Origin: Squalus acanthias | Lineage: Eukaryota | Direction: 5' to 3' | DNA length: 64,000 nucleotides | NCBI GenBank assembly: GCA_030390025.1 | Contig: CM059432.1 | Span: 97,032,001 to 97,096,000 of the forward strand | Part shown: positions 18,639 through 56,393 of the stretch, piece by piece | Layout: each line of letters opens with the position of its first letter | Position numbering within the stretch: position 1 is the stretch's first letter | The notes under the pieces: generated by a model | Seen by the model: the letters and a program-made list of their open reading frames with translations, nothing else | Databases searched by the model: none | Told to the model about the DNA's origin: nothing | Position numbers and translations under genes: made by a program

Positions 18639-20347
18639 TGTAAAGTTTCGCAATTATCGCGATTCAAAATAACAAGATAGAAGCAGATTCGTTTAATCAG
18701 TTTATTTAAACAAAATGCTGTCATGATTAAAAAGGACACAGAAGCCTGTAAAATGGCCGCCGCGCATCGTGGCAGAAGCTTCCAGAAGTACAGTGGGCAG
18801 ACAAGATGGCATTCGAATACACATTTCAATATAAGACGGGATCATACTCGATAAGCACTGATAAAGACAGGATGCAACCTGTTTGCATTTGTGACAATAG
18901 CAAAAGATATGAGTGCTGGAATCGTTTTCCATGCACAAGTAAGGACCATTATACTGGGCAATCGAAGGCCCATCCAGACACATCAATACACAGATACGCC
19001 CACGGCTCTACAATGAGAGAGCCATTCTCGGGTGATTAAACAAGTATTCGGGGGCCCCCAAAACCAGTCAGGGAGACGATTCATACGATCCTGGCTGGGC
19101 CAACAATGGGGAAAACATTAACGGGTAGTTGGCCAGTCTCAGGTGCTACCGAAACCCGTTAAAGACAAGAATCACCCCATGCTGGAAGTTTTGAGCGCCA
19201 ATATTTCACAAAGGACAAACATTAAGATTTGGGCGGGAGATAAGGGAACACAGCACTATAACTATAGACAACAAATGTCCATCGCTCTCTTATTCTCTTA
19301 TCTCGCTGCTGACTGCGGAGGGTTTTATTCTTTTATTCGCTTGCCGCTTCATGAACTCGCTTGACTGGTGAGCTTCTGTGCTTTTCCTGGACTTTGTTGA
19401 CTCTTAGCCGTACTGGTCGGTTATTCGAATGTTGGGTGGAGCTCAATTAGAACGAGTCGCCTCGACGAAGGCCAGTGACCGGGTGCACCATCCCGAGAGT
19501 CGGTAAACGGTGTTTGGACCCGAAGGCCCAACAAGACAAGACGAAATGACAAGGGAAGAAGAAGAATCCACGTGCCGCCACGGTCAGTAAACCCCGACCG
19601 CGCCCGAAAATATACGACCCATTTCTTGAACTCTACAGGTTACTGCACGAACCGGTCAAAGACTCTTCTTTGAATTCTACTGACAACTGGTGTCGGTACA
19701 GGAAGACTTTTCTTTGAATTCTACAGCCGGGCCCGAGTGCTGTCGAGTTCTTCATGACAACGGGGAGCCCAGCCTGCTTGCCGCAGCAGTGAAGATAAAC
19801 AAGTGGGGTACAGAGACCCCTCCAAACACGTGACAGTCAGGCGCTGCAGCGAAACGAGCCGAGTGCCTCACTTAAAAATTCTCCGAAGTATCACGAGTGG
19901 TGAGCATGTTTCCCGATCCTACAAATCTAGATGCAGTGTAGGTATTGATAAGGGAGGGTGGTTTTATTAAGGATAAAGTATAATGTGTTCCCCTTTTTAC
20001 GATGTGCCGTGCGTTCTTCATTACCATAGACCAAGCTTTATGAATGTATGTATACTTGTACTCTCGTTAATTTGCGCCTATGACATGTACTTCATGATTT
20101 TGGACGCTATGCAATAAAGATTTCCATTTCGTACTATTCAACCGGGTCTATTTGAGTTTTTCTCTGCATTACTGCTCTCGCACCTAAGTCCAGTGTTAGA
20201 ACCGTAAGGGCGAGTGGGTCGAACCACTCACAGGTGCTTATTGCAACAAGGCTGGCCGGAGACCAGAGCAAGCAATAGTATTAGGCAACGAAGGCCTAAC
20301 CCCGCACCAGCACCGTCTGCGATACAAGCACATCAAAACCCCTTACA
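18639..20347 (+). mobile_element. Solo LTR, ~1.7 kb, related to 475-1935
   Basis: TGTAA...TTACA termini with an exact TSD TATT (18635-18638, 20348-20351). AATAAA at 20113. Shares 3' motifs with the first LTR (GGTGAGCAT, AATAAAGAT, AAGTCCA....TAGAACC, CCCCT-ACA end). Confidence 0.8.
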
Positions 20348-20493
20348 TATTAAGGGCTAGAAATTCATTATAGCCCAGGAATGGGCGGTATCATTAGAAA
20401 AGTTGGAAATTTAGCACCAGGCACTGATGCTTTAGACTGCACGCAAAATTCGTGCTCACTGCTCAAGGTCTTAAAGCCCAAGCTCATTGGCGT

Positions 20494-20633
20494 TACACTC
20501 AAAGGGTGGACCAATATTAGGTGCAGTCTAATGGCAAGTCATGATTGCTACAGGCTCTTTTTAGTTCTTAAAGGGGAGGTTCATTGATGCTACAGCACCT
20601 CATTCTCAGCATTGCTGGCTGTGCAGCTGCCTC
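20494..20633 (+). repeat. 140-bp direct repeat, copy 1 (duplicated Tx1 target)
   Basis: TACACTCAAAGGGTGGACCAAT...GCAGCTGCCTC, near-identical to 27747-27886 and 34991-35130. Confidence 0.97.
20511..20607 (+). promoter_or_regulatory. Putative Pol II core promoter inside the 140-bp repeat
   Basis: CCAAT at 20511, TTCTTAAAGGGGAGG (TATA-like) at 20565-20579 and Inr-like TCATTCT at 20600-20606. The same 15-mer precedes a Myb-like ATG in the MITE (61186-61200). Function is inferred. Confidence 0.45.
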
Positions 20634-21608
20634 AGCCAGGAGAAGGAGAAGAAGGAGAGTGAGGAGCAGAGTGGTGGTCTCTGTGACTAGGGAGAGGAGG
20701 AGGAACAAGACTGCAGACCACCACTACAACCAACAACAACAACAACTGAGGTGCCTGGAGAGAGAGGACAGGAGAGGAGAGAAAGGAAGGCCAAGGCCAT
20801 CAACACCAGAGGAGAAGCCTTTCCACACTGCCTCCTCAATTGGCCTCCATTTTAGGAGAGGGAGAGAGGGGAGAAAACATCACAACATCATCTGTTTGGA
20901 AGGAGGAAGAAGGAAAGAACAGCTACAGGTGGGTGTTATTCTGGTGCACTCTCCCAGAGACTTTGTTTTGTAGGTGGGGGGAGGAAAGAAAAAAAGAAGA
21001 GGGCCGGAACATCAAGGTGTGTGTGTGTGTGTGTGTGTGTGGCTTTTGTAAAAATTAGGCCACACACACCACTAATAAGCACACCCTTCCCATTGCCTGA
21101 CCTGGGACAGCTGGAGCTGCCGAGGTGAAGTCCCCAATTCAAGTACATCTGATTGGGCATCGTTAAGACCTGGTGCAGGACTGAGCCTGGGCATCTCCAG
21201 CTTCCCAGGTGAAGACATCTTTTCCCCCCACCAGAAGACCACCAGCAAAGACTTTATTTACATCGGAGAGTGCACCCCCTGCCAACACCCACCCACCCAC
21301 CATCCTGAGTGGCGACCCTGCCCTTGCGGCTTCCCTCCTTCCCACCCCCTCTCTCTCTCTCTTTGTCTCTTGTCTCTCTCTGCCTCTCTCTCTATCAGAG
21401 AGGCACCTCAGTTTAACTTTTATTATTAACTACCCATTGAGCAGAGGGGAGAAGGCCCCTCTCCTAATTAATTCAAATAAAGGGAGAGGTGTGCCTTCAA
21501 TTTAAACAACTCCCTCTGCTCAGGGGGAAAAAAAACAAAACCCAAGGCCATTAACACCTTCAGGCCTGTGACTTGGGGTGAGTGTAGCCCTTTAAAAACC
21601 AACCCATC

Positions 21609-23761
21609 ATGGCGACCACATCTTCGGTGGCGGGGACAGCGAGGACATACGCAAGCGTGGCAGCCGCGGCCACGGCCGCAGCCACGGGTCCTCCTGTTAC
21701 CCCGTCACCTTTTACACTCCTGACGAGGAAGAATGGGGTCAAGAGCTACACTCACCGCAACATGACGATAGAGGCATGCATTAAAGCCATGGCTGGGGTT
21801 GTCAGCCCTTCAGCCATCGTTGCCGCCTCTAAGATGTACGGCAAGGCTGTGTTCTTCCTGGGGTCGGAGCGGGCGGTGACCCTGGCCATTGAAAAGGGGC
21901 TCACCGTGGGCGGGACCTTCCTGCCGGTGGACCCCCTTGAGGCCACCGCGCAGAGAATCGTTATCTCTAATGTCCCGCCCTTTGTTCCGGGTGAGCTCCT
22001 CCTCCCCCACCTACGTCAACTGGGGGGAGGTGAGGTCGGGGATCACACCCATCCCGCTCGGCTTCCGGGAGGCCAGCCTCCGGCACGTCTTCTCCTTTTG
22101 GCGCCAGCTTTTCGTCCGGCTGGCGCGGGAGGAGGACACGGATGGCGCATTCACGGTGCTCCACGAGGGGACCGCCCATCGCGTCTTCTGGACCTCGGAC
22201 GGCGTGCGGTGCTACGCCTGTAAGGAGGTGGGGCACGTCCAGAAAAACTGCCCCGCCTCCAGGGCCGCCACGACACCTAATGCGGCCAGGGCTGGCGCCG
22301 CCGCCCCTTTTCCCCCGATACTGTCCGCGCGTTGAAATCCACAGATGCGCGGTCGACGTCGGGGGCCAGCACCATCACGGCCTCCGGCGGGGGGGAGGGA
22401 GAGCGTCCGAGGGGAAGGAAGGCGCTGAAAAAGACTAAACACCTCAAGGCGGGTCCCCTCGTGGAGGAAACTGAGCTACCCGAACTCACGCCCGCGCTCC
22501 TCGCGGAGTTGACAGGGACGCCTGAGGCTGGGGAGGGCCTCGTGCCCGGGCCCTTGACCGCAACTGCCGAGGCAGAGAAATCAAGACCTGTGGCCGGGCT
22601 CGGGCCCGAGGGGCCCAAGAAACCCAGTCATCGGGAGGGGATGGAGAGGGAGGCCCCAGCAGACATGGAGGCCTCCCCCTCTCTGGGCCCCAATACCTTA
22701 AAAAGGAGGCACGACTCCCAGGAGGAGGACAGCGAGGAGGAAGGTCGCTCTGCAGAAGGGGAGTCGTCGCCCGCCCCGGGTGCTGCGTCCCACCCTGCCA
22801 CCGTCACAATCGCGATCGATCGGCAGGGGTCTCCTGTCCCTCGGGAGGGTGAGACAGACGAGTCTGTCCGGCCTGTGCCTCCCGGGGATGGGGAAGAGAG
22901 CCTGCCCGTGGGGGGGGGCCGCGGAACAACCCGCGGAAATTAATAATCAAACACCGGAACCGTTGCTCCTCGCCGGGTCGGGCGTCCTGGGGACTGGGGC
23001 GGGCGAGGCCAAAGAGGCTGAGGCTGAGCCCGCCCAATGTGACCCAGATATATCCCAGGGACTACTCGACCTGGTCGAGGAGTGTAACCAGAATCCCCAG
23101 TCCGCTGGGTCGGAGGTTGGTGGCGGGGAGACAGAAGGCCCCCTGACTCCGTCTCTGACGTTGGCGCCGGACGTGCTGGAGGAACTGGGAATTGTTTTCT
23201 CCCCGGTTTCTCCGGTCGCCCCGGTGCCTGAGGCAGAGGGGGGCCCCGAACCGCCGCCGCCTCCCGGCCCGGCGCCCCTGAAGGAGCCCAGGGAGGACTC
23301 CTCTGCCACCGATCCTGGGGGTGGGATCGTGATAGAGGCGGGGCCGGCCGATGCGGCCGAGCCGTTCGCTGCACCCCGTGCGACGGACGGGTCGGCCGCC
23401 GGTGACGACCTCCCGGAGGAGGACGGGGACTGGGTGTTGGGCACCGAGGATGATGTGGACTCCATCGGCAGCGAGACGGTGGATGCCCTCGTGCCCCTCA
23501 CCGAAGCTCCCCTCACACCCGTAGGGGAACTCCGAGAGTTTATGGCCACGTGCCGGGGTCGTCATAATAAGATCCGGCTGGCCCTCGACAGGTGGTCGGA
23601 GCTGGCGCTGCTCGTCGGGTCCGTCCGCGCCGCCGTAAAAATCATGGGCGCGGACAAGGACGTAAGCCAGCTCTAGCTGCGTCGGCTCAGGACGTTCCTC
23701 AATGGGCTGCTGAGGGAGTGGCGGTCGTCAGTGACTGCGCTCCCTCCCCCCCGTTAGGTAG
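21609..23761 (+). pseudogene. Tx1 ORF1 (zinc-knuckle RNA-binding protein), disrupted
   Basis: MATTSS...RTYASV, ISNVPPF and CYACKEVGHVQKNC. Split into several ORFs by homopolymer frameshifts and stops; colinear with the intact ORF1 of copy B. Confidence 0.9.
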
Positions 23762-23782
23762 AGGTTGCACTATGCTTCCGAC

Positions 23783-26700
23783 ATGAAGATAACCATAGCC
23801 AGCCTCAACATCAACGGCAGCAGGGAGGCGCGCCGTAGATTCAATAACTTCTCGGTCCTTTGGGACGGGAAGTATGCGGTGTGCTTCCTGCAAGAAACCC
23901 ACACCGTTCCGGGAGACGAGGCCACGTGGCTCCTGGAGTGGCAAGGAGGGGTCAGCATGAGTCACCTCTCCAACAATTCCTGCGGGGTGGCCGTCTTGCT
24001 GGCCCCGCATCTTTCAGCCGGAGATCTTGAGGGTCAAGGAGCACGTGCCGGGCCGCTTGCTCCAGGTCACTGTTCGCCTGGGGGGGCGTGCCGCTCCATT
24101 TAGTGAACGTGTACGCCCCCCAGACCGGTGCGCAGCAAGTGCGCTTCTTCGGAGAAGTGTCCGCTCTTCTGGGCTCCATCGACGTGGGCGAGTGCGTCAT
24201 CCTCAGGGGGGATTTCAATTGTACCCTGGAGGCGCGGGACCGGTCGGGTCCCCCGCGAAGCCCGGCGGCGATGGAGAAGTTGTGGGACCTGGTCGGGTCC
24301 TTCGACTTGGTGGATGTCTGGCGAAATCTCCATCCCGACTCCAGCGCCTTCACGAGCGTGAGGTCTGGAGGAGGAAGGTCCAGAATCGACCGCCTTTACA
24401 TTTCCCGGGCGTACGTCTCCTGCGTTCCGGCGGCTTCCATGCGGCCGGTGCCGTGCACGGACCACCACCTGGTGTCGGCGGAGCTCGCTCCGCTGCGCGC
24501 GTGGGGGGGGTCCGCGTACTGGCATTTTAACAACCTGCTGCTGGAGGACGCGTGGTTCCGGGATTTGTTTCGCCGGTTCTGGGCCGACTGGAGAAGGAAG
24601 CAGGGGGGCTTCCCCTCCTTGAGGCTATGGTGGGACGTGGGCAAGGCTCACGTCCGTCTCTTCTGTCAGGAGTACGCGAAGGGGTCGACCAAGAGGCGGG
24701 AGGCCCGGGTCGGGCGATTGGAGAAAGAAGAGCTCGACCTGGAGTCCCGTCTCGGTCAAGTCGTCGAAGACCCGGCCCTGCGGAAAGTGTACGAAGAGAA
24801 GAAGGGCGCGCTGAAGGACCTGCAGCTGGTCGGGTCCCAAGGCGCGTACGTGAGGTCGCGGATCCAGTTCCTGCGGGACCCGGACCGCGGCTCCCCCTTC
24901 TTCTACTCGCTGGAAAAAAGACGGGGGCTCCGTAAGCAGCTCTTGGGGCTGCTGGTCGACGACGGATCTCTGGTCTCGGATCCGGAGGGCATCAGCGCGG
25001 AGGCCCGGGCCTATTACGGGGCTCTGTTCTCTTCGGATCCGTCCAGCGAGGATGCGCGCAGAGTTTTGTGGGAGGACCTGCCGAAGGTCGGCCCGGAGGG
25101 TGCCGAGAATTTAGAAGCTCCGCTAAGCCTGGCGGAGCTGACCGGCGCCCTGCGCCAGCTCTCGAGGGGCAAGTCCCCGGGGTTGGACGGGCTGACCGTG
25201 GAGTTCCACAGGGCGTTCTGGGACGTCTTGGGGGACGACTACTCACGGGTCCTGGGGGAAATTCTGGCGACCGGGGAGATGCCCCTCTCTTGGCGCAGGG
25301 CGGTCATCGTCCTGCTGCCCAAGAAGGGCGATCTCCGCCTACTTAAGAACTGGCGCCCGGTCTCCCTCCTCAGCACGGACTACAAAATTTTCGCCAGGGC
25401 TATGTCGGCTCACCTTGGCACCGTGCTGGCCCACATGATCCACCCCGACCAGTCCTACACGGTCCCGGGCCGGAGCATCCACGACAACATCCACCTGGTC
25501 CGGGACTTGGTCCACCAATCCCAGAGGGCTGGTCTGTCGGTCGCCTTCCTTTCCCTGGATCAGGAGAAGGCGTTCGACAGGGTGGATCACGAGTATTTTT
25601 TCGGGACTCTGCGCGCATTCGGGTTCAGGACGCATTTCGTCACCCGGATCCGACTTCTGTACGCCGCCGCGGAGTGTCTGATTAAAGTTAACGGGTCTTT
25701 GACGGCGCCCCTTCGCTTCGGGAGGTGGGTGCGTCAGGGATGCCCCATGTCCGGCCAGTTATACGCCGTTTGCGTGGAGCCTTTCCTGCGCCTCTTGCGG
25801 AAGTGGTTGACGGGACTGGCTCTGCAAGGGTCGGGCGTGGAGGTGGTCCTCTCGGCTTACGCCGATGACGTGCTCCTCGCGGTCACGGATCCCGTCGACT
25901 TGCGGAGGATGCGAGAATGCCAGCAGATTTACTCGGACGCATCCTCCGCCAAGATCAACTGGGAGAAATGTTCTGGACGCCTGGTGGGCCCATGGCGGGT
26001 GGATTCCCTGCCGGAGGAGTTCAGGCCTTTCGCCTGGAGCACCACGCACCTCCTCTACTTGGGAGTCTACCTCAGCCCGGCCGAGGATGCCTGGCCGGCG
26101 AACTGGCAAGAGCTGGAGGCCAAAGTCACCGCTCGCCTAGGGCGCTGGACAGGACTGCTCCGAGTGTTGTCCTACAGGGGTCGAGCGCTGGTCATAAACC
26201 AGCTGGTGGCCGCCATGTTGTAGTACCGGTTGGTCACTTTGATCCCTCCCCCTGCGTTTGTCGCCAAGATGCAGAAGAAGCTCGTCGACTTCTTCTGGGA
26301 CAAAAGGAAGCACTGGGTCTCTGCCGCGGTTCTGAGTCCCCCGCTTAGGAAGGGCGGTCAGGCGCTGGTGTGCCTTCGCACCCAGGCGGCGACTTTCCGT
26401 CTTCAGACGCTGCAGAGATACCTGTACGTGGAGAATCCTCCTAGGTGGCGTGCGCTGGTGACGTATTTCTTCCGCCAGCTGCACGGCCTCAATTACGACA
26501 CGCAGCTCCTGTTTGTAAGAGTTGGTGGCACGCGTGCCAGCCTGCGGGAGCTGCCTGTCTTCTACCAGGAACTGCTATGGGTTTGGAACAGCGTCGCCTT
26601 CAGGCGCAGTTCTCCGCCGTCAGGAGCGGCGGCCGTCCTTCGGGAGCCGCTGCTCAGGAATCCGCACCTCCACGACCGCGGGTTCGGCTGGCTGGCGGAG

Positions 26701-27677
26701 GGCAGGGCTGTGCCTGATAAGGTGACTAGGGTCGGGGACCTGCTCGATGGCGGAGGAGCGGGCTGGATGGCGCCGTAGGAGTTGGCGAGGCGCATGTCCT
26801 AGGTCAACGTCCGGCTCGCGGTCAAAGCCATCGAGTCGCTAAAAGTGGCACTGGGCCCCGACTCCACTAGGTGTATCGAGGAGGCTCAAGCACGTGGGGC
26901 GATCCCGTCCGAGCTGACCTCCATTCGGACGGAATTCCTTATCGGCACCCGGCCCCAAATCCTCCCTCGGGAGCCGCCGCCTCACCACTTGAGCCTTCTC
27001 AGAGAAATGACCTCCGTGCCCTTTTATTCGGCGCGGAGGCGTTTCCTGTACGGGCTGCTCCTGCACACTCTCCACTTTGCCATCTTCGTCTGCCATCTGG
27101 ACACGCCTTGGCGTACCATCCTGCCGTCCGGCGGAGATGAAGGTCCCCAATGGAGGGCTCTCTACGTGGGAGTTTTCCCTTGTTCTATCGGGGACTTGGC
27201 CTGGAGGGTGTTGCACGGAGCAGTCCCGTGCAATAGGATGTTAAATAGGTTCACGGACTCCCAGGCTGCTTGTCATTTCTGGAGGAGTCCGTGTTTCACA
27301 TTTATACGGAGTGTGAGAGGTTGCAGCACCTCTTTCATTACTTGAAGGGGCTGCTCCTCAATTTCTGGTTGCACTTCAGCCCCACGCTCCTGATCTATGG
27401 TCACCCGGCGCGGAGGGGAGCGGGCAGGTCGGAGGACCTCCTCGTAGGACTGTTCCTGGGCCTGGCCAAGAAGGCCATCAATTGGTCCAGGCAGCGGGCG
27501 GTCGAGGGGGTCGTTCGGCCCGATTGCCTGCCTCTCTTTCGCGGCCATGTTCGCGCCCGGGTGGCCCTGGAGATGGAGCACGCGGTGACCGCCGGCACGC
27601 TTGAGTTTTTCCGCGACCGGTGGGCGCCGCGGGGACTAGAGTGCATCGTCACCCCGGGCTACCAAATTTTAATTTAA
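23783..27677 (+). pseudogene. Tx1 ORF2 (APE endonuclease + RT), disrupted
   Basis: SLNINGS, FLQETH, NVYAP, GDFN, SRIDR, TDHH, KSPGLDGL, NWRPVSLLSTDYK, LDQEKAFDRVDH, RQGCPMS and AYADD motifs. Frameshifts near 24010-24090 and 27280; stop at 26221-26223 and further stops near 26776-26802. Confidence 0.92.
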
Positions 27678-27746
27678 GTTATTAAGTTTCCTTTAAAGTT
27701 TTAATTGATTTACAGTTCATTTGGTTTAGTACCCAATCAAAAAGAG

Positions 27747-27886
27747 TACACTCAAAGGGTGGACCAATATCAGGTGCAGTCTAATGGCAAGTCATGATTG
27801 CTACAGGCTCTTTTTAGTTCTTAAAGGGGAGGTTCATTGATGCTACAGCACCTCATTCTCAGCATTTCTGGCTGTGCATCTGCCTC
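27747..27886 (+). repeat. 140-bp direct repeat, copy 2 (between the two Tx1 copies)
   Basis: Same sequence as copies 1 and 3, with two private substitutions. Confidence 0.97.
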
Positions 27887-28858
27887 AGCCAGCAGAAGGA
27901 GAGGAAGGAGAGTGAGGAGCAGCAGCAGAGTGGTGGTGGTCTCTGTGACCAGGAAGAGGAGGAGAAGGAGACCAGACAGCAGACCACCACCAACACAACC
28001 ACAACAACTAAGGTGCCTGGAGAGAGAGGACAGGAGAGGAGAAGGAGATAGAAAAGGAAGGCCATCAACACCAGAGGAGAGGCCTTTCCACACTGCCTCC
28101 CCAATTGGCCTCCATTTTAGGATAGGGAGAGAGGGGAGAAAACAGCACTACAACCATCATCTGTTTGGAAGGAGGAAGAAGGAAAGAACAGCTACATGTG
28201 GGTGTTATTCTGGTGCACTCTCCCACAGACTTTGTTTTGTAGGTGGGGGGAGGAAAGAAGAAAAGAAGAGGGCCGGAACATCAAGGGGTGTGTGTGTGGC
28301 TCTTGAAAAAATTAGGCTGCACACACCATATTAAACACCCCTTCCCATTGCCTGACCTGGGACAGCTGGAGCTGCCTAGGTGAAGTCCCCAATTTAACGA
28401 CATCTTATTGGGCATCGTTGAGACCTGGTGCAGGACTGAGCCTGGGCATCTCCAGCTTCCCAGGTGAAGACATCTTCTCCCCCCACCAGAAGACCACCAT
28501 CAAAGACTTTATTTACATCGGAGAGTGCACCCCCTGCCAACACCCACCCACCCACCATCCTGAGTGGCAACCCTGCCCTTGCGGCTTCCCTCCTTCCCAC
28601 CCCCTCTCTCTCTCTCTCTCTCTCTCTTTGTCTCTTGTCTCTCTCTGCCTCTCTCTCTAAGAGGCACCTCAATTTACTTTTTATTAATTACCCATTGAGC
28701 AGAGGGGAGAAGGCCCCTCTCCTAATTAATTCAAATAAAGGGAGAGGTGTGCCTTCAATTTAACAGCTCCCTCTGTTCAGGGGAAAACAAAACCGAGGCC
28801 ATTAACACCTTCAGGCCTGTGACTTGGGGTGAGTGTAGCCCTTAAAGATCAACCCATT

Positions 28859-31003
28859 ATGGCGACCACATCTTCGTTGGTGGCGGGGACAGCGAGGACC
28901 TACGCGAGCGTGGCAGCCGCGGCCACGGCCGCAGCCACGGGTCCTCCTGTTACCCCGTCACCTTTTACACTCCTTACGAGGAAGAATGGGGTCAAGAGCT
29001 ACACTCACCCCAACATGACGATAGAGGCGTGCGTCAAAGCCATGGCTGGGGTTGTCGGCCATTCAGCCATCGTTGCCGCCTCTAAGATGTACGGCAAGGC
29101 TGTGTTCTTCCTGGGGTCGGAGCGGGCGGTGTCCCTGGCCATTGAAAAGGGGCTCACAGTGGGCGGGACCTTCCTGTCGGTGGACCCCCTCGAGGCCACC
29201 GTGCAGAGAATCGTGATTTCCAACGTCCCGCCCTTTGTTCCAGGTGAGCACCTCCTCCCCCACCTACGTCAACTGGGGGAGGTGAGGTCGGGGATCACAC
29301 CCATCCCGCTCGGCTTCCGGGAGGCCAGCCTCCGGCACGTCTTCTCCTTCCGGTGCCAGCTTTTCGTCCGGCTAGCGCGGGAGGAGGACACGGACGGCGC
29401 GTTCACGGTGCTACACTGGGGGACCGCCCATCGCGTCTTCTGGACCTCGGACGGCGTGCGGTGCTACGCCTGTAAGGAGGTGGGGTACGTCCGGAGAAAC
29501 TGCCCGGCCTCCAAGGCCGCCACGACACCTAGCGCGGCCAGGGCTGGTGCCGCCGCCCCCCCTCCCCCTGATACTGTCCGCGCGTCGAAATCCACAGATG
29601 CGCGGTCGACGTCGGGGGCCAATACCATCACGGCCTCCGGCGGGGGGGAGGGAGAGCGTCTGGGGGGAAGGAAGGCGCTGAAAAAGACCAAACACCTCAG
29701 GGCGGGTCCCCTCGTGGAGGAAACTGAGCTACCCGAACTCACGCCCGCGCTCCTCGCGGAGTTAACGGGGACGCCTGAGACTGGGGGGGGCCTCGTGCCC
29801 GGGCCCGTGACCGCAACTGCCGAGGCAGACAAATCAAGACCTGCGGCCGGGCTCGGGCCCAAGGGGCCCAAGAAACCCAGTCATCGAGAGGGGACGGAGA
29901 GGGAGGCCCCGGCAGACATGGAGGCCTCCCCCTCTCCGGGCCCCAATACCTTAAAAATGAGGCACGACTCCCAGGAGGAGGACCGCGAGGAGGAAGGTCC
30001 CTCCGCACAAGGGGAGTCGTCGCCCGCCGCGGGTGCTGCGCCCCACCCCACCACCGTCATCGTCGCGATCAATCAGCAGGGGTCTCCTGTCCCTCGGGAG
30101 GGTGAGACAGACGAGTCTGTCGGACCTGTGCCTCCCGGGGATGGGGAAGAGACCCTGCCCGTGGGGGGGGCCGCGGAACAACCCGCGGATAATCAAACAC
30201 CAGAACCGTTGCTCCTCGCCGGGTCAGGCATCCTGGGGACTGGGGCGGGCGAGGCCAAAGATGCCGAAGCTGAGCCCGCCATTTACAACCCAGACATCTC
30301 CCAGGGACTGCTCGACCTGGTGGAGGAGTGCAATAATCACCAGTCCGCTGGGTCGGAGGTTGGTGGCGGGGAGACAGAAGTCCCCCTGACTCCGTCTCTG
30401 ACGTTGGCGCCGGACGTGCTGGAGGAACTGGGAATTGTTTTCTCCCTGGTTTCTCCGGTCGCCCCGGCGCCTGAGGCGGAGGGGGGCCCCGAACCGCCGC
30501 CGCCTCCCGGCCCGGCGCCCCTGAAGGAGCCCAGGGAGGACTCCTCTGCCACCGATCCTGGGGGTGGGATCGTGACAAAGGCGGGGCCGGCCGGTGCGGC
30601 CGAGCCGTTCGCTGCACCCCGTGCGACGGACGGGTCGGCCGCCGGTGACGACCTCCCGGAGGAGGACGGGGACTCGGTGTTGGGCACCGAGGATGATTTG
30701 GAGTCCATCGGAAGCGAGACGGTGGACGCCCTCGTGCCCCTCACCGACTCTCCCCTCATCCCCGTAGGGGAACTCCGGGATTTTATGGCCACGTGCCGGG
30801 GTCGTCACAATAAGATCCGGCTGGCCCTCGACAGGTGGTCGGAGCTGGCGCTGCTCGTCGGTTCCGTCCGCGCCGCCGTAAAAATCATGGGCGCGGACAA
30901 GGACGTAAGCCGGCTCGAGCTGCGTCGGCTCAGGACGTTCCTCACTGGGCTGCTGAGGGAGCGGCGGTCGTCAATGACTGCGCTCCCTCCCCCCGTTAGG
31001 TAG
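28859..31003 (+). CDS. Tx1 ORF1 protein (gag-like; knuckle reads CYACKEVGYVRRNC, His replaced by Tyr)
   Basis: Uninterrupted ORF; the track starts at GTG 28829 and the first ATG is at 28859. RTYASV N-terminal motif, ISNVPPF motif and a long Pro/Glu-rich low-complexity region. Confidence 0.85.
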   Translation: MATTSSLVAGTARTYASVAAAATAAATGPPVTPSPFTLLTRKNGVKSYTHPNMTIEACVKAMAGVVGHSAIVAASKMYGKAVFFLGSERAVSLAIEKGLTVGGTFLSVDPLEATVQRIVISNVPPFVPGEHLLPHLRQLGEVRSGITPIPLGFREASLRHVFSFRCQLFVRLAREEDTDGAFTVLHWGTAHRVFWTSDGVRCYACKEVGYVRRNCPASKAATTPSAARAGAAAPPPPDTVRASKSTDARSTSGANTITASGGGEGERLGGRKALKKTKHLRAGPLVEETELPELTPALLAELTGTPETGGGLVPGPVTATAEADKSRPAAGLGPKGPKKPSHREGTEREAPADMEASPSPGPNTLKMRHDSQEEDREEEGPSAQGESSPAAGAAPHPTTVIVAINQQGSPVPREGETDESVGPVPPGDGEETLPVGGAAEQPADNQTPEPLLLAGSGILGTGAGEAKDAEAEPAIYNPDISQGLLDLVEECNNHQSAGSEVGGGETEVPLTPSLTLAPDVLEELGIVFSLVSPVAPAPEAEGGPEPPPPPGPAPLKEPREDSSATDPGGGIVTKAGPAGAAEPFAAPRATDGSAAGDDLPEEDGDSVLGTEDDLESIGSETVDALVPLTDSPLIPVGELRDFMATCRGRHNKIRLALDRWSELALLVGSVRAAVKIMGADKDVSRLELRRLRTFLTGLLRERRSSMTALPPPVR

Positions 31004-31024
31004 AGGTTGCACAATGCTTCCGAC

Positions 31025-34000
31025 ATGAAGATAACCATAGCCAGCCTCAACATCAACGGCAGCAGGAAGGCGCGCCGTAGATTCAATAACTTCTCGGTCC
31101 TTCGGGACGGGAAGTATGTGGTGAGCTTCCTGCAAGAAACCCACACCGTTCTGGGAGACGAGGCCACGTGGCTCCTGGAGTGGCAAGGAGGGGTCAGCAT
31201 GAGTCACCTCTCCAACAATTCCTGCGGGGTGGCCATCTTGCTGGCCCCGCATTTTCAGCCGGAGATCTTGAGGGTCAAGGAGCACGTGCCGGGCCGCTTG
31301 CTCCAGGTCACTGTTTGCCTGGGGGGCGTGCCGCTCCATTTAGTGAACGTGTACGCCCCCCAGACCGGTGCGCAGCAAGTGCGCTTCTTCGGAGAAGTGT
31401 CCGCTCTTCTGGGCTCCATCGACGTGGGCGAGTGCGTCATCCTCGGGGGGGATTTCAATTGTACCCTCGAGGCGCGGGACCGGTCGGGTCCCCCGCGAAG
31501 CCCGGCAGCGATGGAGAAGTTGCGGGACCTGGTCGGGTCCTTCGACTTGGTGGACGTCTGGCGAAATCTCCATCCCGACTCCAGCGCCTTCACGAGCGTG
31601 AGGTCTGGAGGAGGAAGGTCCAGAATCGTCCGCCTTTACATTTCCCGGGCTTACGTCTCCTGCGTTCCGGCAGCTTCCATGCGGCCGGTGCCGTGCACAG
31701 ACCACCACCTGGTGTGGGCGGAGCTCGCTCCGCTGCGCGCGCGCGGGGGGGCCGCGTACTGGCATTTTAACAACCTGCTGCTGGAGGACGCGCGGTTCCG
31801 GGATTTGTTTCGCCGGTTCTGGGCCGACTGGAGCAGGAAGCGGGGGGGCTTCCCCTCCTTGAGGCTATGGTGGGACGTGGGCAAGGCTCACGTCTGCGTC
31901 TTCTGTCAGGAGTACGCGAAGGGGTCGACCAAGAGGAGGGAAGCCCGGGTCGGGCAATTGGAGAAAGAAGTGCTCGACCTGGAGTCCCGTCTCGGTCAAG
32001 TCGTCGAGGACCTGGCCCTGTGGAATATGTACGAAGAGAAGAGGGGCGCGCTGAAGGACCTGCAGCTGGTCGGGTCCCAAGGCGCATACGTGAGGTCGCG
32101 GATCCAGTTCCAGCGGGACCTGGACCGCGGCTCCCCTTTCTTCTACTCGCTGGAAAAAAGTCGGGGGGTCCGTAAGCAGCTCTTGGGGCTGCTGGCCGAC
32201 GACGGATCTCTGGTCTCGGATCCGGAGGGCATCAGCGCGGAGGCCCGGGCCCATTACGGGGCTCTGTTCTCTTCGGATCCGTCCAGCGAGGATGCGCGCA
32301 GAGTTTTGTGGGAGGACCTGCCGAAGGTCGGCCCGGAGGGCGCCGAGAATTTAGAAGCTCCGCTAAGCCTGGCGGAGCTGACCGGCGCCCTGCGCCAGCT
32401 CTCGAGGGGCAAGTCCCCGGGGCTGGACGGGCTGACCGTGGAGTTCCACAGGGCGTTCTGGGACGTCTTGGGGGACGACTACGCGTGGGTCCTGGGGGAA
32501 ATTCTGGCGACCGGGGAGATGCCCCTCTCTTGGCGCAGGGCGGTCATCGTCCTGCTGCCCAAGAAGGGCGATCTCCGCCTACTTAAGAACTGGCGCCCGG
32601 TCTCCCTCCTCAGCACGGACTACAACATTTTCGCCAGGGCTATGTCTGCTCGCCTTGGCACCGTGCTGGCCCACATGATCCACTCCAACCAGTCCTACAC
32701 GGTCCCGGGCCGGTCCATCCATGACAACATCCATCTGCTCCGGGACCTGGTCCACCATTCCCAGAGGGCTGGTCTGTCAGTCGCCTTCCTTTCCCTGGAT
32801 CAGGAGAAGGCGTTCGACAGGGTGGATCACGAGTATCTTTTCGGGACTCTGCGCGCATTCGGGTTCGGGACGCATTTCGTCGCCCGGATCCGACTTCTGT
32901 ACGCCGCTCGCGGAGTGTCTGATTAAAGTTAACGGGTCTTTGACGGCGCCCCTTCGCTTCGGGAGGGGGGTGCGTCAGGGTTGCCCCATGTCCGGTCAGT
33001 TATACGCCGTTTGCCTGGAGCCTTCCCTGCGCCTCTTGCAGAAGAGGTGGACGGGACTTGCTCTGCAAGGGCCGGGCGTGGAGGTGGTCCTCTCGGCTTA
33101 CGCCGATGACGTGCTCCTCGCGGTCATGGATCCCGTCGACTTGCGGAGGATGCGAGAATGCCAGCAGATTTACTCGGACGCATTCTCCGCCAAGATCAAC
33201 TGGGAGAAATGTTCTGGACTCCTGGTGGGCCCATGGCGGGTGGACTCCCTGCCGGAGGAGTTCAGGCCCTTCACCTGGAGCAAAACGCACCTCCTCTACC
33301 TGGGAATCTACCTCAGCCCGGCCGAGGATGCCTGGCCGGCGAACTGGCAAGAGCAGGAGGCCAAAGTCACCGCTCGCCTACGCCGCTGGACAGGACTGCT
33401 CCGAGTGTTGTCCTACAGGGGTCGAGCACTGGTCATAAACCAGCTGGTGGCCGCCATGTTGTGGTACCGGTTGGTCACTTTGATCCCTCCCCCTGCGTTT
33501 GTCGCCAAGATGCAGAAGAAGCTCGTCGACTTCTTCTGGGACAAAAGGAAGCACTGGGTCTCTGCCGCGGTTCTGAGTCTCCCGCTTAGGGAGGGCGGTC
33601 AGGCGCTGGTGTGCCTTTGCACCCAGGCGGCGACTTTCCGTCTTCAGACGCTGCAGAGATACCTGTACGTGGAGAATCCTCCTAGGTGGCGTGCGCTGGC
33701 GACGTATTTCTTCCGCCAGCTGCACGGCCTCAATTACGACACGCAGCTCCTGTTTGTGAGAGTGGGCGGCACGCGTGCCAGCCTGCAGGAGCTGCCTGTC
33801 TTCTACCAGGAACTGCTATGGGTTTGGAACAGCGTCGCCTCCAGGCGCAGTTCTCCCCGTCAGGAGCGGCGGCCGTCCTTCGGAAGCCGCTGCTCAGGAA
33901 TCCGCACCTCCACGACCGCGGGTTCGGCTGGCTGGCGGAGGGCAGGGCTGTGCCCAGTAAGGTGACTAGAGTCAGGGACCTGCTCGATGGTGGAGGAGCG

Positions 34001-34954
34001 GGCTGGATGGCGCCGGAGGAGTTGGCGAGGCGCATGTCCTGGGTCAACGTCCGGCTCGCGGTCAAAGCCATCGAGTCGCTAAAAGTGGCACTGGGCCCCG
34101 ACTCCACTAGGTGTATCGAGGAGGCTCAAGCACGTGGGGCGATCCCGTCCGAGCTGACCTCCGTTCGGACGGAATTCCTTATCGGCGCCCGGCCCCGAAT
34201 CCTCCCTCGGGAGCCGCCGCCTCACCACTTGAGCCTTCTCGGAGAAATGCCCTCCGTGCCCTTTCATTCCGCACGGAGGCGTTTCCTGTACGGGCTGCTC
34301 CTGCACACTCTCCACTTTGCCATCTTCGTCTGCCGTCCGGACACGCCTTGGCGTACCATCCTGCCGTCCGGCGGAGGCGAAGGTCCCCAATGGAGGGCTC
34401 TCTATGCGGGAGTCTTCCCTTATTCTATTGGGGACTTGGCCTGGAGGGTGTTGCACGGAGCAGTCCCGTGCAACAGGGTTTTAAATAGGTTTACGGACTC
34501 CCAGGCTGCTTGTCATTTCTGCGGCCTGGAGGAGTCCGTGTTTCACATTTATATTGAATGTGAGAGGTTGCAGCCCCTCTTTCATTATTTGAAGGGGCTG
34601 CTCCTCAATTTCTGGTTGCACTTCAGCCCCACGCTCCTGATGTACGGTCACTCGGTATGGAGGGGAGCTGGCAGGTCGGAGGACCTCGTCATAGGACTGC
34701 TCCTGGGCCTGGCTAAAAAAGCCATTAATTGGTCCAGGCAGCGGGCGGTCGAGGGGGTCATTCGGCTTGATTGCCTACCTCTCTTCCGTGGCCATGTTCG
34801 CGCCCGGGTGGCCCTGGAGATGGAGCACGCGGTGTCCGCCGGCACGCTTGAGTTTTTCCACGACCGGTGGGCGCCGCGGGGACTGGAGTGCATCGTCACC
34901 CCGGGCTACCAAATTTTAATTTTATTTGTTAAGGTTTATTTAAAGTTTTACTGA
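31025..34954 (+). pseudogene. Tx1 ORF2 (APE endonuclease, RT, C-terminal CCHC finger), two frameshifts
   Basis: ORFs 31007-32926, 32721-33965 and 33686-34954 join at frameshifts near 32908 and 33856. YADD is present, and CHFCGLEESVFHIYIEC forms the zinc finger. Confidence 0.92.
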
Positions 34955-34990
34955 TTTACAGTTTTTGATTTGGTACCCAAACAATAAGAG

Positions 34991-35130
34991 TACACTCAAA
35001 GGGTGGACCAATATCAGGTGCAGTCTAATGGCAAGTCATGATTGCTACAGGCTCTTTTTAGTTCTTAAAGGGGAGTTTCATTGATGCTACAGAACCTCAT
35101 TCTTAGCATTGCTGGCTGTGCAGCTGCCTC
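34991..35130 (+). repeat. 140-bp direct repeat, copy 3 (continues into the Harbinger Myb gene leader)
   Basis: Same sequence with three private substitutions. The Myb ATG follows at 35183. Confidence 0.97.
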
Positions 35131-35182: not shown

Positions 35183-37037
35183 ATGGAAGATCCACAAACC
35201 AGAGAGAGAGAACGCAGATTCTACGATCAAGCATTGGAGGCGTTGGTGTTTGCTGTGGAGAGATGGAGGACGGTGCTCTACCCGGCAAGTTGCAGGAGGC
35301 CCTCGCCGCAAGTCATCCGTACCATGTGGAGGGAGGTAGCACAGCACGTCTTGGGCAGCACTGTGGTCCCCAGGATCCACACACAGTGCAGGAAGAAATT
35401 TAACGACCTCACTCAGGTGATCAGGTAAGTGAATGCTTCAACAAATGCTACATACCACCATCTGAACCATCGTCTTCAGACACTGCCCAAAGCACCACAT
35501 GCCCAGCACTCAACCACCAACAATCTCTACCTAGCAACACTCACACTCACATCTCACACCTTGCACACAATGAGAGCTATTCAACTATAGCAGGCACATC
35601 ACCCAAACACATTGCTCCACATTCATTCACAAGCTTTCCTTTCTCTTGCAGGCCAAGGTGGCTCACAACAGGAGGGAGCAGGAGTGCACAGGCAGGGGAC
35701 AAGCTGACACCCAACCACTGTCTGCGCAGGAGAATCGAGTGCTGCAGATTATTGGGTGCCAGGTGGTGGGCGCCATGGCCACCGGTGACGTTGACCCCCT
35801 TGGGAACAACAATGGTATATTCATCCCTACTCCTTCTTCTCACATCATGCTGTATGCATGCATTTCTCCCTTCCTGCCCCCCTCCCCTCACCTTAACCCG
35901 ACTCTTGTGCCTTTATGCTTTCAGATAATGAGCAAGCACCTGAGCAGGCTATCCCTGAGGGCACCGTAGAGAACAAAACAGGAGAAGAGGAGGAGGAAGA
36001 ACACACCTCGTCACTGCATGTCTCACCCACAGGCATCAGCTATGATACTGGCACTACGCATTCTTTAGAGGCTAATATAGTAGCGGGAGCTGCACAGGGT
36101 GAGGCACTGGGGAAGAGTTGGCTGCAGCAAGGCCAGGGGGAATGGGTAGCTTGGGAGTGAACTCTCCGGAGGGCGAATTCGTGTGCGAGTTCTGCTGCAC
36201 AGGACTCAGATGAGGATCTCAATGGGGAGGCCTTTAGAAGAAGGGTGATGGGCATGCACACGGAGCTGATGGGTGCAATGGCAAGAGTGCGCGGGAGCCT
36301 CTCGGCAATGATAAGGAGCGTGGAGGAGTCCGCCTCCAACATTGCACAGAGCTCTGCGCACACCATGGAACCCTTCATTTCCAGTTTGCAAAGGATGGTA
36401 GACTCCCAGAGAGACTGGTGACCCAGACCTGATGCCACTTGTGATGGGCGATCTGCCAGCTTCCATTGCAGCACAGGCGGATGCGAAGGAACGTTTTAGT
36501 GCTATAATGCAGTCTATGCTTGGTGGCATCTAACCTCAGAATGCTTTCATGCAGTCTCAGCTTGATACCACGCAAGCTCTAACTGCTGCCATCGTGGCTG
36601 GGTCTACCACTGTCGACCGGCGCTTTCACGTATCACAGCAGGCCAGCAATCTATGCTGCAACAGATTGCTAGGGATGCTGAGGTGCTGCCTCGGGGGAGT
36701 GGCTGTGAGTCAGTGGGGCACGAACCTGCTGTCCTCTCTCAGGATAACAGCATTCCTGCTCCCACCACTGCCACTCCGCCATTGCCCTTGTCGCTGCCTG
36801 TCATCTAGCAGCCCAGACTGCTGCCACCCATGCTGAGGTGGTGCAGTCTACAGCCAGGCCTACCAGGCCCAGAGCTGGTCGAGGGCATCATGCAAAGCCA
36901 TCTGAACTCTCCCGCATGGACACTCAGTAGCCTTCTACCAGCTCTGTTGCAGCCACTGGGCCAACACTTCGTAGGAGCTCTAGAGTAGGCAAAGGCACAG
37001 TAACGAGGGGCCCTAAAGGATTGCAAAAGGGTGAATA
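35183..37037 (+). pseudogene. Harbinger Myb/SANT-like DNA-binding protein gene, 3 exons, decayed
   Basis: Exon 1 (35183-~35424): RERERRFYDQALEALV...WREVAQHV...QCRKKFNDL, followed by GTAAGT. Exon 2 (35652-~35814): AKVAHNRREQECTGRG after TTCTCTTGCAG. Exon 3 from ~35925 has stops. Confidence 0.85.
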
Positions 37038-37199
37038 GTTAATATTTTTGTTGTAAATATGTGTTCACTGATTTTTGATAAATTTATTAATTCAGTTTGG
37101 ATTCTTTTGTGGTGTGTCTCATTTCAGCTTTGCGCTGTGATATGACCTGCGACAAAGATGGAATGATGGGAATGTGGTGAGCAACGGGGATCTGGGGTT

Positions 37200-38339
37200 T
37201 AATTTATTGTAACCGCAGTCTGATGAGGCGGTCATGGACAGCCCTGCCAGAAGGCTGATTGAGTGGCTGCCTCCTCCCTCGCTCCTGTTCCTCCTCCTCC
37301 TCCTGAGGTGGTCCCGCAATCCCTGGTCGCAAGGGCTGGGCCCTCATGATGGCCAAGTTGTGGAGCATGCAGCAGACCACCACGAACTGGGACAGCCACT
37401 CAGCTTAGTACTGGAGGGCTCTCCCAAGCGGTCAAGGCAGCAGAACCATTGCTTCAGCAGGCCGATGGTCTGCTCGATGATATTCCTGGTGGCAGCATGG
37501 CTCTCATTATATGAGTGCTGGGCAGGAGTGTTGGGGTTGCGGAGGGGAGCCATGAGCCAGGTGGAGAGCGGATACCCCTTGTCTCCGAGTAGCCAGCCGC
37601 GAGCTTGACGTGTAGGCTGGAAGAGTGCAGGCACACCGGTGTGGCGCAGGATGAAGGCACCATTGCTGCTGCCAGGATAGCGGGCAATCACATTGAGAAT
37701 TAGCTGTCTGTGGTCGCACACCAACTGAACATTAAGTGAGTGGTAGCCTTTGCAGTTACAGAAGATCTCAGGATTGTTATGCGGTACCTGCAAAGCCATG
37801 TGGGTGCAGTTATTGGCGCCCTGCACCATGGGGAATCCCGCTATCCTGGCAAAGCCACATGCATGCTCTTCCCGCTTCTCTCTGGTAATAGGGGAGGAAA
37901 TGTAGTCCCTTCTCCTACTGTAGAGAGCTTCTGTGACCTCCTGGATGCAGCGATGGGCGGCAAACTGTGAAATGTTAGCTAAGTGTCCTGTTGCAGACTG
38001 GAAGGATCCACTGGCGAAGAAATTGCGGGCGATGGTGACCTTGACTGCCACTGAGAGAGCCGTGGTCACCCTGATCTGTGGCTAGAGGTCTGGTTGCAGG
38101 AGGTGGCAGTGTCCTGTGACTACCTCCTTGGTGAGGATGAGCCTTCTAATACACTGCCCCTCACTTAATTGGAGGTAGGAGAAGATCTCTCAGAATACCC
38201 TCGGAGGGTAAGGCCTCCTGTTGAGAGCCCTGATGGCCCTCCTCCTCCCTCTGGCCACTTGTTCCAGTCTTTCTCACTGTCTCTGCTCCCTCTGCCGTAG
38301 ATCCTGGAGGACAAGGTCGACTGCCAGTACAGCCCCCAT
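37200..38339 (-). pseudogene. Harbinger DDE transposase (HARBI1-like), decayed
   Basis: [43 protein letters not shown] and TRNIIEQTIGLLK motifs. Probable ATG at 38339; internal stops and frameshifts. Confidence 0.92.
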
Positions 38340-39002
38340 TAATGTAACCATGTGTAGCAATTTGATTTTTTTATGAATAAATGTACCTACTTTTTAGTTG
38401 CCACAGCACTCCTGATACTAAATAACGTTGAAATTATGGAATGAGACTGGTGCACTTTGTGAAACTGACAAGAAAGCAATGAAATTCCACTGACCTTACA
38501 GCTGTGACTCATTACTGATGATCCCTTTAAATAATGTCCCTGGAGCTGGCTTCCTGTTGCTTGACACCAGCTCTCCCTATCGCTGTTTCCTCCTGGCGCT
38601 AAGGTTGGTGATGACAATCAATTTTGCAGATTGGGCGGTCAGTGAGCATTGCACACTCATTGATGTAACGATCCACCTGACATTGAGGCTCTCGGTGATA
38701 ACTGTTAGCGGCAGCGCTGCGTGGGGTGGGGGTGGGGGCAGGATTTGGCGTACGGCACTGGATTTGCCTTGCCCTGGCAATATTGCTCTGGCGCCCCATT
38801 AGCCCCATCTGCTGGGACTAACGGGAGGTGTTAAGCTACCGAATTTTTCCCCCAACGTGTCATAACAAGAGGGTGCATAGATTGCAGTTCTTTCAAGCAC
38901 AGAGGTCCCACAACATTCACCTGGTGGTTACTGGAATCACAAATAAATTGGGCAAGTTGTATTGGGGTTTCAATGGGCAAGTTACCAACATCCTATTGAC
39001 TA

Positions 39003-48036: not shown

Positions 48037-48553
48037 CTATTAACAGCACATACTTATCTTAAAGTGTGTTGCTAAATACAGATGAATCAAAATTGCTGGG
48101 ATCCCACTGTGCTGCCTTGAGTGCAGCAGTGCAGGAGTCCCAGTTGCCAATTTTACAAGCCAATGACTTCCATATCCTGGGATAGGATTATTTCAATATT
48201 CTGAGAAAAAGGCACCCACTCCAAGTCACCCTGCCACTTCAATGGGGAGGGGGGCAGGGTCGGAATGGAGGCCCTTATCTGGCTGATGATGAAATGGCCC
48301 AAACTGTCTCGAAGAGAGGCTGGAGCCCTGTGGGATTGATTACCTATGAGCTGCAACATCTTTGAAGCCTTTGAAAGGCCCACTCCAGAAGCCACATCTG
48401 AACTCAGCAGGGCTTTGCCTTCCACTGGACCGTCATGACCTACACCCCTCCCTATCTTTGTAACCACCTCTAGTCCGACAACCCATGCTCTGAACTTCCT
48501 ATTTCTCTGACCTGGACTCTTATAAATATCCCCTCCCATCATGGGTGGCTGTG

Positions 48554-48616
48554 CCTTAGGTCCAGTGGAAGCCACGCCTGAACTCAGCAGTGGCATGGCT
48601 TCCACTGGACCTAAGG
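48554..48616. repeat. Perfect 21-bp inverted repeat (hairpin)
   Basis: CCTTAGGTCCAGTGGAAGCCA ... TGGCTTCCACTGGACCTAAGG. Confidence 0.9.
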
Positions 48617-55326: not shown

Positions 55327-55637
55327 GCTGATCTAATAGATGTCAGGTAAAGTGGAGATCAGAGGCACAATCCTTCAATGTTCTGATAGTGAGAGTGGCT
55401 TCCGAGGTTACAGAAATCACCTGCAAACTCCTGACAGCTAAATGTCTGCAGAAAATGGAGTCAGCAAGAGCCTTTCCCTTAGGCAAGGAAGCTTGTGTAA
55501 TGTGTGAGTATTTATGTGTTTTTTCCAGCTGTCACTTAATAGACTCGCACAATGGCCACTGAACTTCCGCCTCCCCTTCACAGCCAAGGTTCCCGAGGTG
55601 CGTGAATCCTGTGCGCAAGAAGTTAAAGCCAAAACCT

Positions 55638-56393
55638 TGTAAGAATAAAAATATATGTTTTGTATGTGTGATGGACTCAAGACTATTAATATAAGATGTG
55701 TGTAATAAAGATAAATTTGATGTGTGTGGATCTCCCCTGGGTAAGGTAACAGCATGAAACTTAACAAAGGAAACCTGCATAACAGGATAACCCCCCACAG
55801 CAACACCATCGAAACTCACCATCGAAACTCAAGAGCCACTAAAAGGTGTCAACAAACAATTAACTTAAGCAAGAAATGGCCCCAGCCACTGCAGACAGAC
55901 ACGTGTAAAAGGAAAGCCAATCAAGAACTGCCGTGAATCTAAGACCCAAACCTGGGGTCTTAGCAATTTAGAGTCGAGACAATGGACTTAAAAAGATATA
56001 AAACAAGGAAACCAAAGGCTCTCTCTCTCTCTCTCTCTGGACAACCACGCAGAAAAACAAGAAGCCCTCCCTCTACAGACCAGACCAAGAAGCAAGGAAA
56101 AAGGCCGCGTGCATTGCTTGACTCAGGGAAGTACCAGTCTGTGTAAATCTAACCCATTACCTCACATGTTGTAATCGAGTAGAGTCCATAAATACCAGTA
56201 GGCTATTGTTTTGATGTGCATGAGTGTGTGTGTTTAATAAATTTGCATGAGTGTGTGTGTTTAATAAATTTGCATGAGTGTGTGTGTTTAATAAATTTGC
56301 ATGAGTGTTTGTGTTTAATAAACTTATTCCAAATTGTTTCAAAAGAATTGGTCTTGCTGTCAATTTAATGCCAGTCGAAATAAAAAGCTTACA
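55638..56393 (+). mobile_element. Solo LTR (756 bp) inserted in the subterminal region of Harbinger 2
   Basis: TGTAAG...CTTACA perfect 6-bp inverted termini and flanks ACCT/ACCC. TATAAAA near 55998, a (CT)n tract, and four 27-bp tandem units each containing AATAAA (~56217-56322). Confidence 0.75.

Follow-up and report, generated by a model that had tools for sequence, protein, structure and literature searches.

The composite locus

The window analysed here is a stretch of 64,000 nucleotides from Squalus acanthias (assembly GCA_030390025.1, contig CM059432.1, positions 97,032,001 to 97,096,000 of the forward strand). It contains a Harbinger transposon that carries two LINEs (long interspersed nuclear elements) of the Tx1 clade, Tx1-A and Tx1-B, and three copies of a Harbinger segment termed R. 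The order along the 20494-35130 region is Harbinger left end, R1, Tx1-A, R2, Tx1-B, R3 and Myb gene. The anatomy given in the original prediction was borne out. Each of R1, R2 and R3 is 140 bp long, and the three copies are identical except at exactly six columns (25, 86, 103, 114, 121 and 133). Both Tx1 elements have the same 3' junction, AAGAG|TACACTC, and the same 5' junction, where R is left at ...GCTGCCTC|AGCCAG. The features are as follows (ORF, open reading frame; APE, apurinic/apyrimidinic endonuclease-like; RT, reverse transcriptase; UTR, untranslated region).

20354..20493, + strand: Harbinger left end, terminal GGGCTAGAAATTC after TAA; the left ends of 30 loci align at 20354
20494..20633, + strand: R1, upstream copy of the duplicated target, from sequence comparison
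20634..27746, + strand: Tx1-A, full length, 7,113 bp, ending in ...AAAAAGAG with no poly(A)
from 21609 (ORF1) and 23783-27677 (ORF2), + strand: reading frames of Tx1-A, both broken by stops and frameshifts
27747..27886, + strand: R2, with T at position 133
27887..34990, + strand: Tx1-B, full length, 7,104 bp, from ORF and domain evidence
28859-31003, + strand: Tx1-B ORF1, open, 726 aa
31025-34954, + strand: Tx1-B ORF2, with APE endonuclease, RT and zf-RVT, spread over three frames
34991..35130, + strand: R3, the resident Harbinger R, running on into the 5' UTR of the Myb gene
35183..37040, + strand: Harbinger Myb/SANT gene, degraded; exon 1 at 35183-35425, 3' end approximate
37210..38339, - strand: Harbinger DDE transposase gene, degraded; DDE_Tnp_4 E 2.7e-26, 3' end approximate
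38825..38852, no strand: Harbinger right end, …GAATTTTTCCCC, an imperfect match to the left terminus; boundary +/-1 bp

The host has the attributes of PIF/Harbinger transposons, namely a DDE_Tnp_4 transposase together with a Myb/SANT gene, short terminal inverted repeats and a 3-bp TWA target-site duplication (TSD). The Myb/SANT exon (ATG at 35183) matched PF13873 with E 6e-4, under the curated cut-off. In the window copy the termini match imperfectly, the flanks are TAA and CAA, and the left end measures 140 bp, versus 164 bp in most copies. Contigs from related organisms break off at 20353/20354, the left boundary of the transposon. At least 1,215 left junctions were counted genome-wide with an exact pattern, and the transposon has ~1,200 copies.

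ORF2 of Tx1-B contains domains PF03372, PF00078 and PF13966, the last marginally below the cut-off. It is 52% identical over 633 aa to the 149-kDa protein of Xenopus Tx1 (Tx1L ORF2; E 4e-197), and the endonuclease domain is 47% identical to that of Tx1L. The best full-length matches were turtle proteins (53%), followed by Xenopus Tx1L (52%); the match of highest identity, a stingray protein (65%), extends across half of the query. With two ORFs, an ORF2 combining APE, RT and zinc-binding domains, and Tx1-type nearest proteins, the inserts are classed as Tx1 clade LINEs, as had been predicted. An Rfam search for a ribozyme at the Tx1-A 5' end gave no match up to E 5 in 20200-21700.

Tx1-A and Tx1-B differ by 345 substitutions, 230 of them transitions, and 28 indels; they are ~5% apart with a 2:1 transition bias. 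Over the last 330 nt they are 90.6% identical to each other, and each is nearer to a dispersed copy (Tx1-A to L032, 97.6%; Tx1-B to L050, 94.8%). At 69 of the 214 non-CpG differences, both letters are present in at least two of 16 other copies. Because each element is closest to a different dispersed copy and the alternative letters recur in other copies, Tx1-A and Tx1-B are separate retrotranspositions and not a tandem duplication. Their order of insertion is not deducible from the six differences in R. The arrangement R-Tx1-R-Tx1-R was also found on other contigs, at C2, C8, C16 and C17. Mis-assembly, in the form of a collapsed or doubled tandem, had been raised as a possibility; with the divergence and transition bias between the two elements, their different nearest copies and the recurrence of the arrangement, its probability is practically negligible.

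Duplication of the target and choice of site

A search with the Harbinger left end followed by R gave 40 scored places from 3,795 candidates, and 30 of these were fetched. Two belong to the window, 24 consist of left end, a single R and Myb gene, and four of left end, R and Tx1. Empty Harbingers had been expected to hold one R, and this was so at 24 of the 28 non-window loci. Among filled loci fetched at both ends, there were 18 at which an upstream R precedes the 5' end of Tx1 and a downstream R precedes the Myb gene. C10b joined this set later, for a total of 19; C6, C17, C19, C20 and C25 had no usable downstream R and were excluded.

Over positions 1-100 of R, the upstream copy was nearest to the downstream copy of its own locus at 17 of 18 filled loci. 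Divergence over these positions was 2.7% within loci (47/1758) versus 12.9% between loci, the latter figure being slightly raised by the interrupted start of C11. At one locus, C3454, a private 26-bp deletion is present in both copies of R, and the resulting duplication of 114 bp ends at the same sequence. Since copies from one locus pair closest and the C3454 deletion is common to both, positions 1-100 are shown, at the level of sequence, to be copied from the local target, and R to be a true locus-specific duplication. The alternative of an element-intrinsic repeat, weighed in the original prediction, gives way to local duplication over positions 1-100 and retains a part of the truth for the last ~40 bp of R, which are also borne by the element (see below). 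Similarity of the Tx1 5' end to Harbinger declines gradually past position 140 (91% over 172 bp), and exact-match runs continue for 0-12 bases past it at the 19 loci; position 140 is thus the usual switch point and not a sharp end.

Two classes of duplication length were found at the same base of Harbinger. Full-length copies have a duplication of ~114-150 bp at all 19 filled loci with both ends available. For 5'-truncated copies the duplication was 13-16 bp in 13 rows (12 loci) among the first 30 of 118 junctions; five of these 30 rows exceeded the fetched flank, two lay outside Harbingers, and the remainder gave no length. Three further truncated copies at this base, beyond the 12 loci, also have short duplications. 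One truncated case (L122) has a duplication of ~129 bp, with its joint at a short CTGCCT match. In the set of truncated copies nearest to Tx1-A, mostly at non-Harbinger sites, 16 of the 23 rows with both ends gave 13-19 bp, a measurement that overshoots by a few bases; the other rows comprised five tandem units, one copy in a tandem repeat and one failure. Full-length copies outside Harbinger have a TSD of 12 bp. The length of the duplication is thus shown, from these sequence comparisons, to depend on the completeness of the copy (~14 versus ~140 bp), apparently guided by a leader derived from Harbinger. A constant long duplication at every insertion, of the R9 type, was not found, as truncated copies have 13-16 bp at the same base. 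The unusually long duplication that had been predicted is real for full-length copies in Harbinger; 140 bp does not hold as the duplication length of the family.

Target choice was estimated from exact-pattern junction counts, which mix subfamilies and are lower bounds, since the pattern GAGCAGCAGAGTGGTGGTCTCTGTGAC matched three places though more are known. At least 118 junctions at the Harbinger site were counted with the exact Tx1 3' end, AAAAGAG|TACACTCAAAG, and at least 1,849 matches to AAAAGAG|TACAC, versus 481 in a reversed-pattern control. Among the first 30 |TACAC rows, 25 were confirmed by BLAST as Tx1 3' ends and none lay inside Harbinger. The Harbinger site accounts for 118 of ~1,370-1,850 counted 3' ends (6-9%), which for the family overall, with its mixed subfamilies, is below the >20%-of-flanks rule of Kojima. 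Thirty of the 3' ends nearest to Tx1-A were fetched, giving 25 independent non-window loci, four of them at the Harbinger site. Roughly a tenth of the Harbinger sites are occupied. Because chance would yield less than one insertion there (1/4096 per TACAC), an enrichment of more than 250-fold, the Harbinger site is, by these counts, a hot spot and not the sole target of a family that inserts before TACAC genome-wide.

Insertion is precise to the nucleotide, |TACAC being found at Harbinger and non-Harbinger sites alike; some subfamilies add or shift one base, and other Tx1 subfamilies prefer other repeats. The predicted precision of the site in Harbinger was confirmed by the fixed 3' junction, whereas the prediction that most copies end inside Harbinger failed. 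A Harbinger-targeting Tx1 family is supported as regards strong enrichment, not as regards exclusive targeting, and such targeting is already described for Tx1-9_AMi (PMC4494074). The pattern CCMAWCMAAAAGAG was rejected as a marker of Tx1 tails, its matches being mostly due to chance (453 versus 320 in the control). Its first 30 rows included 10 Tx1 tails confirmed by BLAST, all 10 of them with TACA directly after the end.

A young Tx1 subfamily (L063-L090, L194-L223, L314-L319 and L330-L331) is found at a single position of a short repeat, …GAGAAGTCGCA|CAACACCAGGTTATAG…, with a duplication of either 16 bp or ~45-53 bp. Part of the 53-bp junction is complementary to the downstream hairpin arm of the target. 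The second target repeat may be a Penelope/hammerhead-type tail; an Rfam search of the repeat gave nothing near the gathering score.

The leader, the predicted promoter and a proposed mechanism

Full-length copies outside Harbinger carry the end of R. At G000:C3:115705059, the 12-bp TSD TACACCCTGTTT is present on both sides and is followed by R from position 100/101. At G000:C4:101826064, a 12-bp TSD-like TACACTGTGTTG, seen in the upstream flank only, precedes R from position 111. The evidence is weaker for the older relative L275 (R from ~101), for L328, whose flank is rearranged (from 104), for the L122 mini-units (from ~113) and for a contig of related organism C, in which a Tx1 3' end and 11 bp are followed by R from position 100. 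L329 has R from 101 and is ambiguous, as R and Myb lie downstream. Positions 1-99 were absent from every off-target leader case found. These two clean and three to four weaker cases show, as far as sequence can, that the full-length element itself carries R ~100-140 as a leader, without positions 1-99. Off-target full-length copies thus have a target-derived 5' leader, as in R2.

Within loci, positions 101-140 differ at 42/720 versus 47/1758 for positions 1-100, a twofold excess (Fisher p 3e-4) that is in line with an element-borne leader. In 48 empty or downstream copies of R both parts vary alike, with 2.5 variants per site each. T at position 133 occurs in four unrelated Tx1 leaders (R2 of the window and three others), in none of 24 empty and none of 19 downstream copies of R (Fisher p 0.014, for a variant picked after being seen).

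R contains a CCAAT motif at position 18 (20511-20515 in R1) and a TATA-like CTTAAAG at position 74 (20567-20573). Position 100 lies 26 bp below CTTAAAG, ~80 bp below CCAAT and ~90 bp above the Myb ATG. CCAAT, TATA and start sites spaced in this way fit a polymerase II promoter. From this spacing the two motifs are predicted to form the Myb promoter, and the off-target leader starts suggest an RNA start at about position 100 (~20593 in R1). A CCAAT/TATA stretch below the 'GCTGCCTCATCAGCC' subfamily was considered as a second promoter duplication; it is lacking upstream of most copies and was not counted as support. A 2.4-kb duplication suspected at L328 was also rejected, the upstream and downstream parts matching partially at most.

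It is proposed, with a probability of roughly 60%, that full-length copies duplicate ~140 bp through pairing of their leader complementary DNA (cDNA) with the downstream target, whereby the predicted Myb promoter would be copied before the new element. In APE LINEs, the APE endonuclease makes the bottom-strand nick. Here it would fall just before TACAC and be followed by reverse transcription. A truncated cDNA would meet only the ~14-nt overhang, with a short duplication as the result. A complete cDNA would end in the complement of R 100-140; its 3' end could anneal to the top strand 100-140 bp past the nick, and extension back to the nick would double positions 1-100 with the promoter-like boxes. 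Alternatively, the 14-nt overhang might be extended along the target before a switch to the cDNA. Both copies of R would again be targets, and repeated insertions could give rise to R-Tx1-R-Tx1-R, in which every unit would have a promoter of its own. The 27-nt target leader of R2Bm is a precedent for pairing of cDNA and target (PMC6895275), and L1 cDNA is described as recombining on 25-50 bp of homology and not on 6 bp (PMC13526784).

More tentatively, at somewhat less than even odds, the Tx1 lineage may be promoterless, each full-length insertion renewing the promoter and the long duplication acting as a stand-in, made of host-element DNA, for a long terminal repeat. If so, homology of the cDNA, rather than a second cut, would determine the length of a LINE duplication.

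Independent support for the pairing comes from tandem truncated copies. Nine such pairs (L114, L115, L118, L135, L137, L140, L048, L050 and L053) have the same 5' breakpoints, different 3' tails and one TSD between them. The upstream copy of L115 is identical to its neighbour for 140 bp except for two differences and beyond that belongs to a younger lineage; pairing of an incoming cDNA with the resident copy below the nick would have this outcome. L114 and L137 are weaker examples of such a gradient.

Several observations weigh against the proposed pairing or the role given to the promoter. The gradient is reversed in L053, slight in L140, L118 and L135, and not clear-cut in the other pairs. 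At C11b, one of the 18 loci, the upstream R was not nearest to its own downstream R. The CCAAT and TATA-like boxes, which are short motifs, are not clearly more conserved than their surroundings among the 48 copies of R. The mismatch excess in positions 101-140 is near equal on 5' and 3' copies (27 versus 22 private changes). At C12, C18, C6b, C2 and C1 both copies share locus variants within positions 101-150 (up to 140-152), so the leader did not always replace the target there. Off-target leaders are few, with starts scattered from 100 to 113 and the ambiguity of L329. Finally, of 30 full-length 5' ends sampled, 24 are situated in a different repeat and retain no more than R 137-140, so the youngest expansions did not need the upstream R.

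This last point also favours an explanation in which the homology-guided duplication is a by-product. An ancestor would have captured Harbinger 5' UTR sequence, the element would now possess an internal promoter of its own, a relic of 9-40 nt (GCCTCAGCA…CAGGA.AAGGAGAAGGAG) would set the switch, and a promoter copy would be unneeded. A Harbinger-like GC(C)TCA.CAGCCAG 5' end is indeed kept in all subfamilies, including those with other targets, and in a rough ORF1 tree the young Harbinger-resident copies are intermingled with second-target copies, the target classes not forming clean clades (the tree has an unsettled bootstrap and a midpoint root and is used solely for this intermingling). However, three or four independent off-target copies have leaders that extend back to position 100/101, ~25 bp downstream of the TATA-like box. 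In other subfamilies the leader has been replaced by one from another repeat, as expected if they lean on flanking promoters. A mere by-product is considered unlikely, though a serious contender.

Alternatively, R might be wholly the 5' end of the element, later gene-converted to the local R, or the units might have arisen by unequal exchange between copies of R. Such exchange does occur once two copies are present, since near-identical arrays exist (at least six units at C19, the first two units at C16). An origin by conversion would require almost complete replacement at 17 of 18 loci, and no R 1-99 was found outside Harbinger or a Harbinger array among the followed-up ones of 40 places; exchange is at odds with the different lineages of Tx1-A and Tx1-B. 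This origin is held to be improbable. Still less credence is given to a cut of the second strand at a fixed ~140 bp (nucleosome-like spacing), a scheme conceivable also for the 126 bp of R9. The switch does lie close to position 140, to within a few bases, at most full-length loci, but a fixed long stagger is contradicted by the 13-16 bp of truncated copies at the same base and the 12 bp of off-target full-length copies, and most directly by C3454, where the 26-bp target deletion gives 114 bp with the same end sequence and largely refutes it.

Several related arrangements were seen. At G000:C19:33340293-33383131, at least six near-identical R-Tx1 units with a period of ~7,090 bp lie in a diverged Harbinger subfamily; this array was probably expanded by unequal exchange. 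In the array at G000:C17:26542055-26577819 the duplicated unit (~245 bp) is a short truncated Tx1 with R, as if an earlier short insertion had been duplicated along with the target. L122 (G000:C2:144940967-144943984) holds five mini-units, each of R (whole or from ~113) and the last ~220 bp of Tx1, which may represent a SINE-like (short interspersed nuclear element) derivative driven from R. A composite at L321-L325 and L337-L351 consists of a 35- or 150-nt leader, Tx1, a stretch with CCAAT, TGACTCA and TATAAAA, and the 5' end of a CR1-like LINE; the upstream flanks of the composite are unrelated, and it may be a chimeric unit.

Elsewhere in the window, another repeat is present as two diverged copies at 53038-58888, where a tandem array with a 30-bp unit occupies 53924-54225. 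A weak likeness (66%) to Harbinger transposase was found at 58530-58874, and a short palindromic stretch, 83% self-complementary, at 48548-48621.

Comparison with known systems

Taken singly, Harbinger targeting (Tx1-9_AMi), a 126-bp duplication (R9) and joining guided by a leader (R2) have precedents; their combination was not found in print. No published report of a Tx1 element with a long duplication, or of a LINE duplicating a promoter, was found among the listings of a literature search that did not extend to Repbase and most subscription papers; the Tx1 family itself may already be catalogued. Xenopus Tx1L makes a short TSD of ~23 bp. Tx1L and Tx2L resemble the present elements in that Tx1L is the closest named protein and in their insertion into a DNA transposon (Tx1D, piggyBac; PMC4494074), but this target differs from the Harbinger site. 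The closest case by target is Tx1-9_AMi of the alligator, a Tx1 LINE that, as here, inserts shortly inside the Harbinger 5' end; from its description (Kojima 2015, PMC4494074), with which alone the comparison was made, its preferred site is ~300 bp from that end, versus 140-164 bp here. Neither a leader nor the length of a duplication is stated in that description. For SINEU and Tx1-Mar in Mariner-N4_AMi, transcription from the flanking Mariner was proposed from 5' extensions; they differ from the present case in their opposite orientation and short TSDs, and promoter duplication is not proposed in the passage on them (PMC4494074).

R2Bm, like related R2 elements, is co-transcribed with its target and has a 27-nt target-derived 5' leader that pairs upstream of the nick (PMC6895275); no long duplication is made, and the host promoter already lies upstream. 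Here, in contrast, the homology is found past the nick, at 100-140 bp, and the promoter-like DNA between the two is duplicated. R9 of bdelloid rotifers has an rDNA (ribosomal DNA) target and a restriction-like endonuclease. It is a site-specific non-LTR element whose 126-bp duplication is described as the result of distant staggered cleavages, whereas the duplication here follows the completeness of the cDNA and the downstream homology; staggers of APE LINEs are usually 10-20 bp, and the completion of LINE 5' ends and the setting of duplication length are named as an open question (PMC6895275).

The present locus provides a natural experiment on this question, as one base of a transposon with ~1,200 copies took both truncated (13-16 bp) and full-length (~140 bp) insertions, and the copied strand can be told from polymorphisms of the target. 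The two length classes at one base favour pairing of the cDNA with the downstream target over a fixed second cut. By the proposed pairing, a LINE lacking a promoter might keep its new copies active, and long duplications like that of R9 would have an explanation open to testing.

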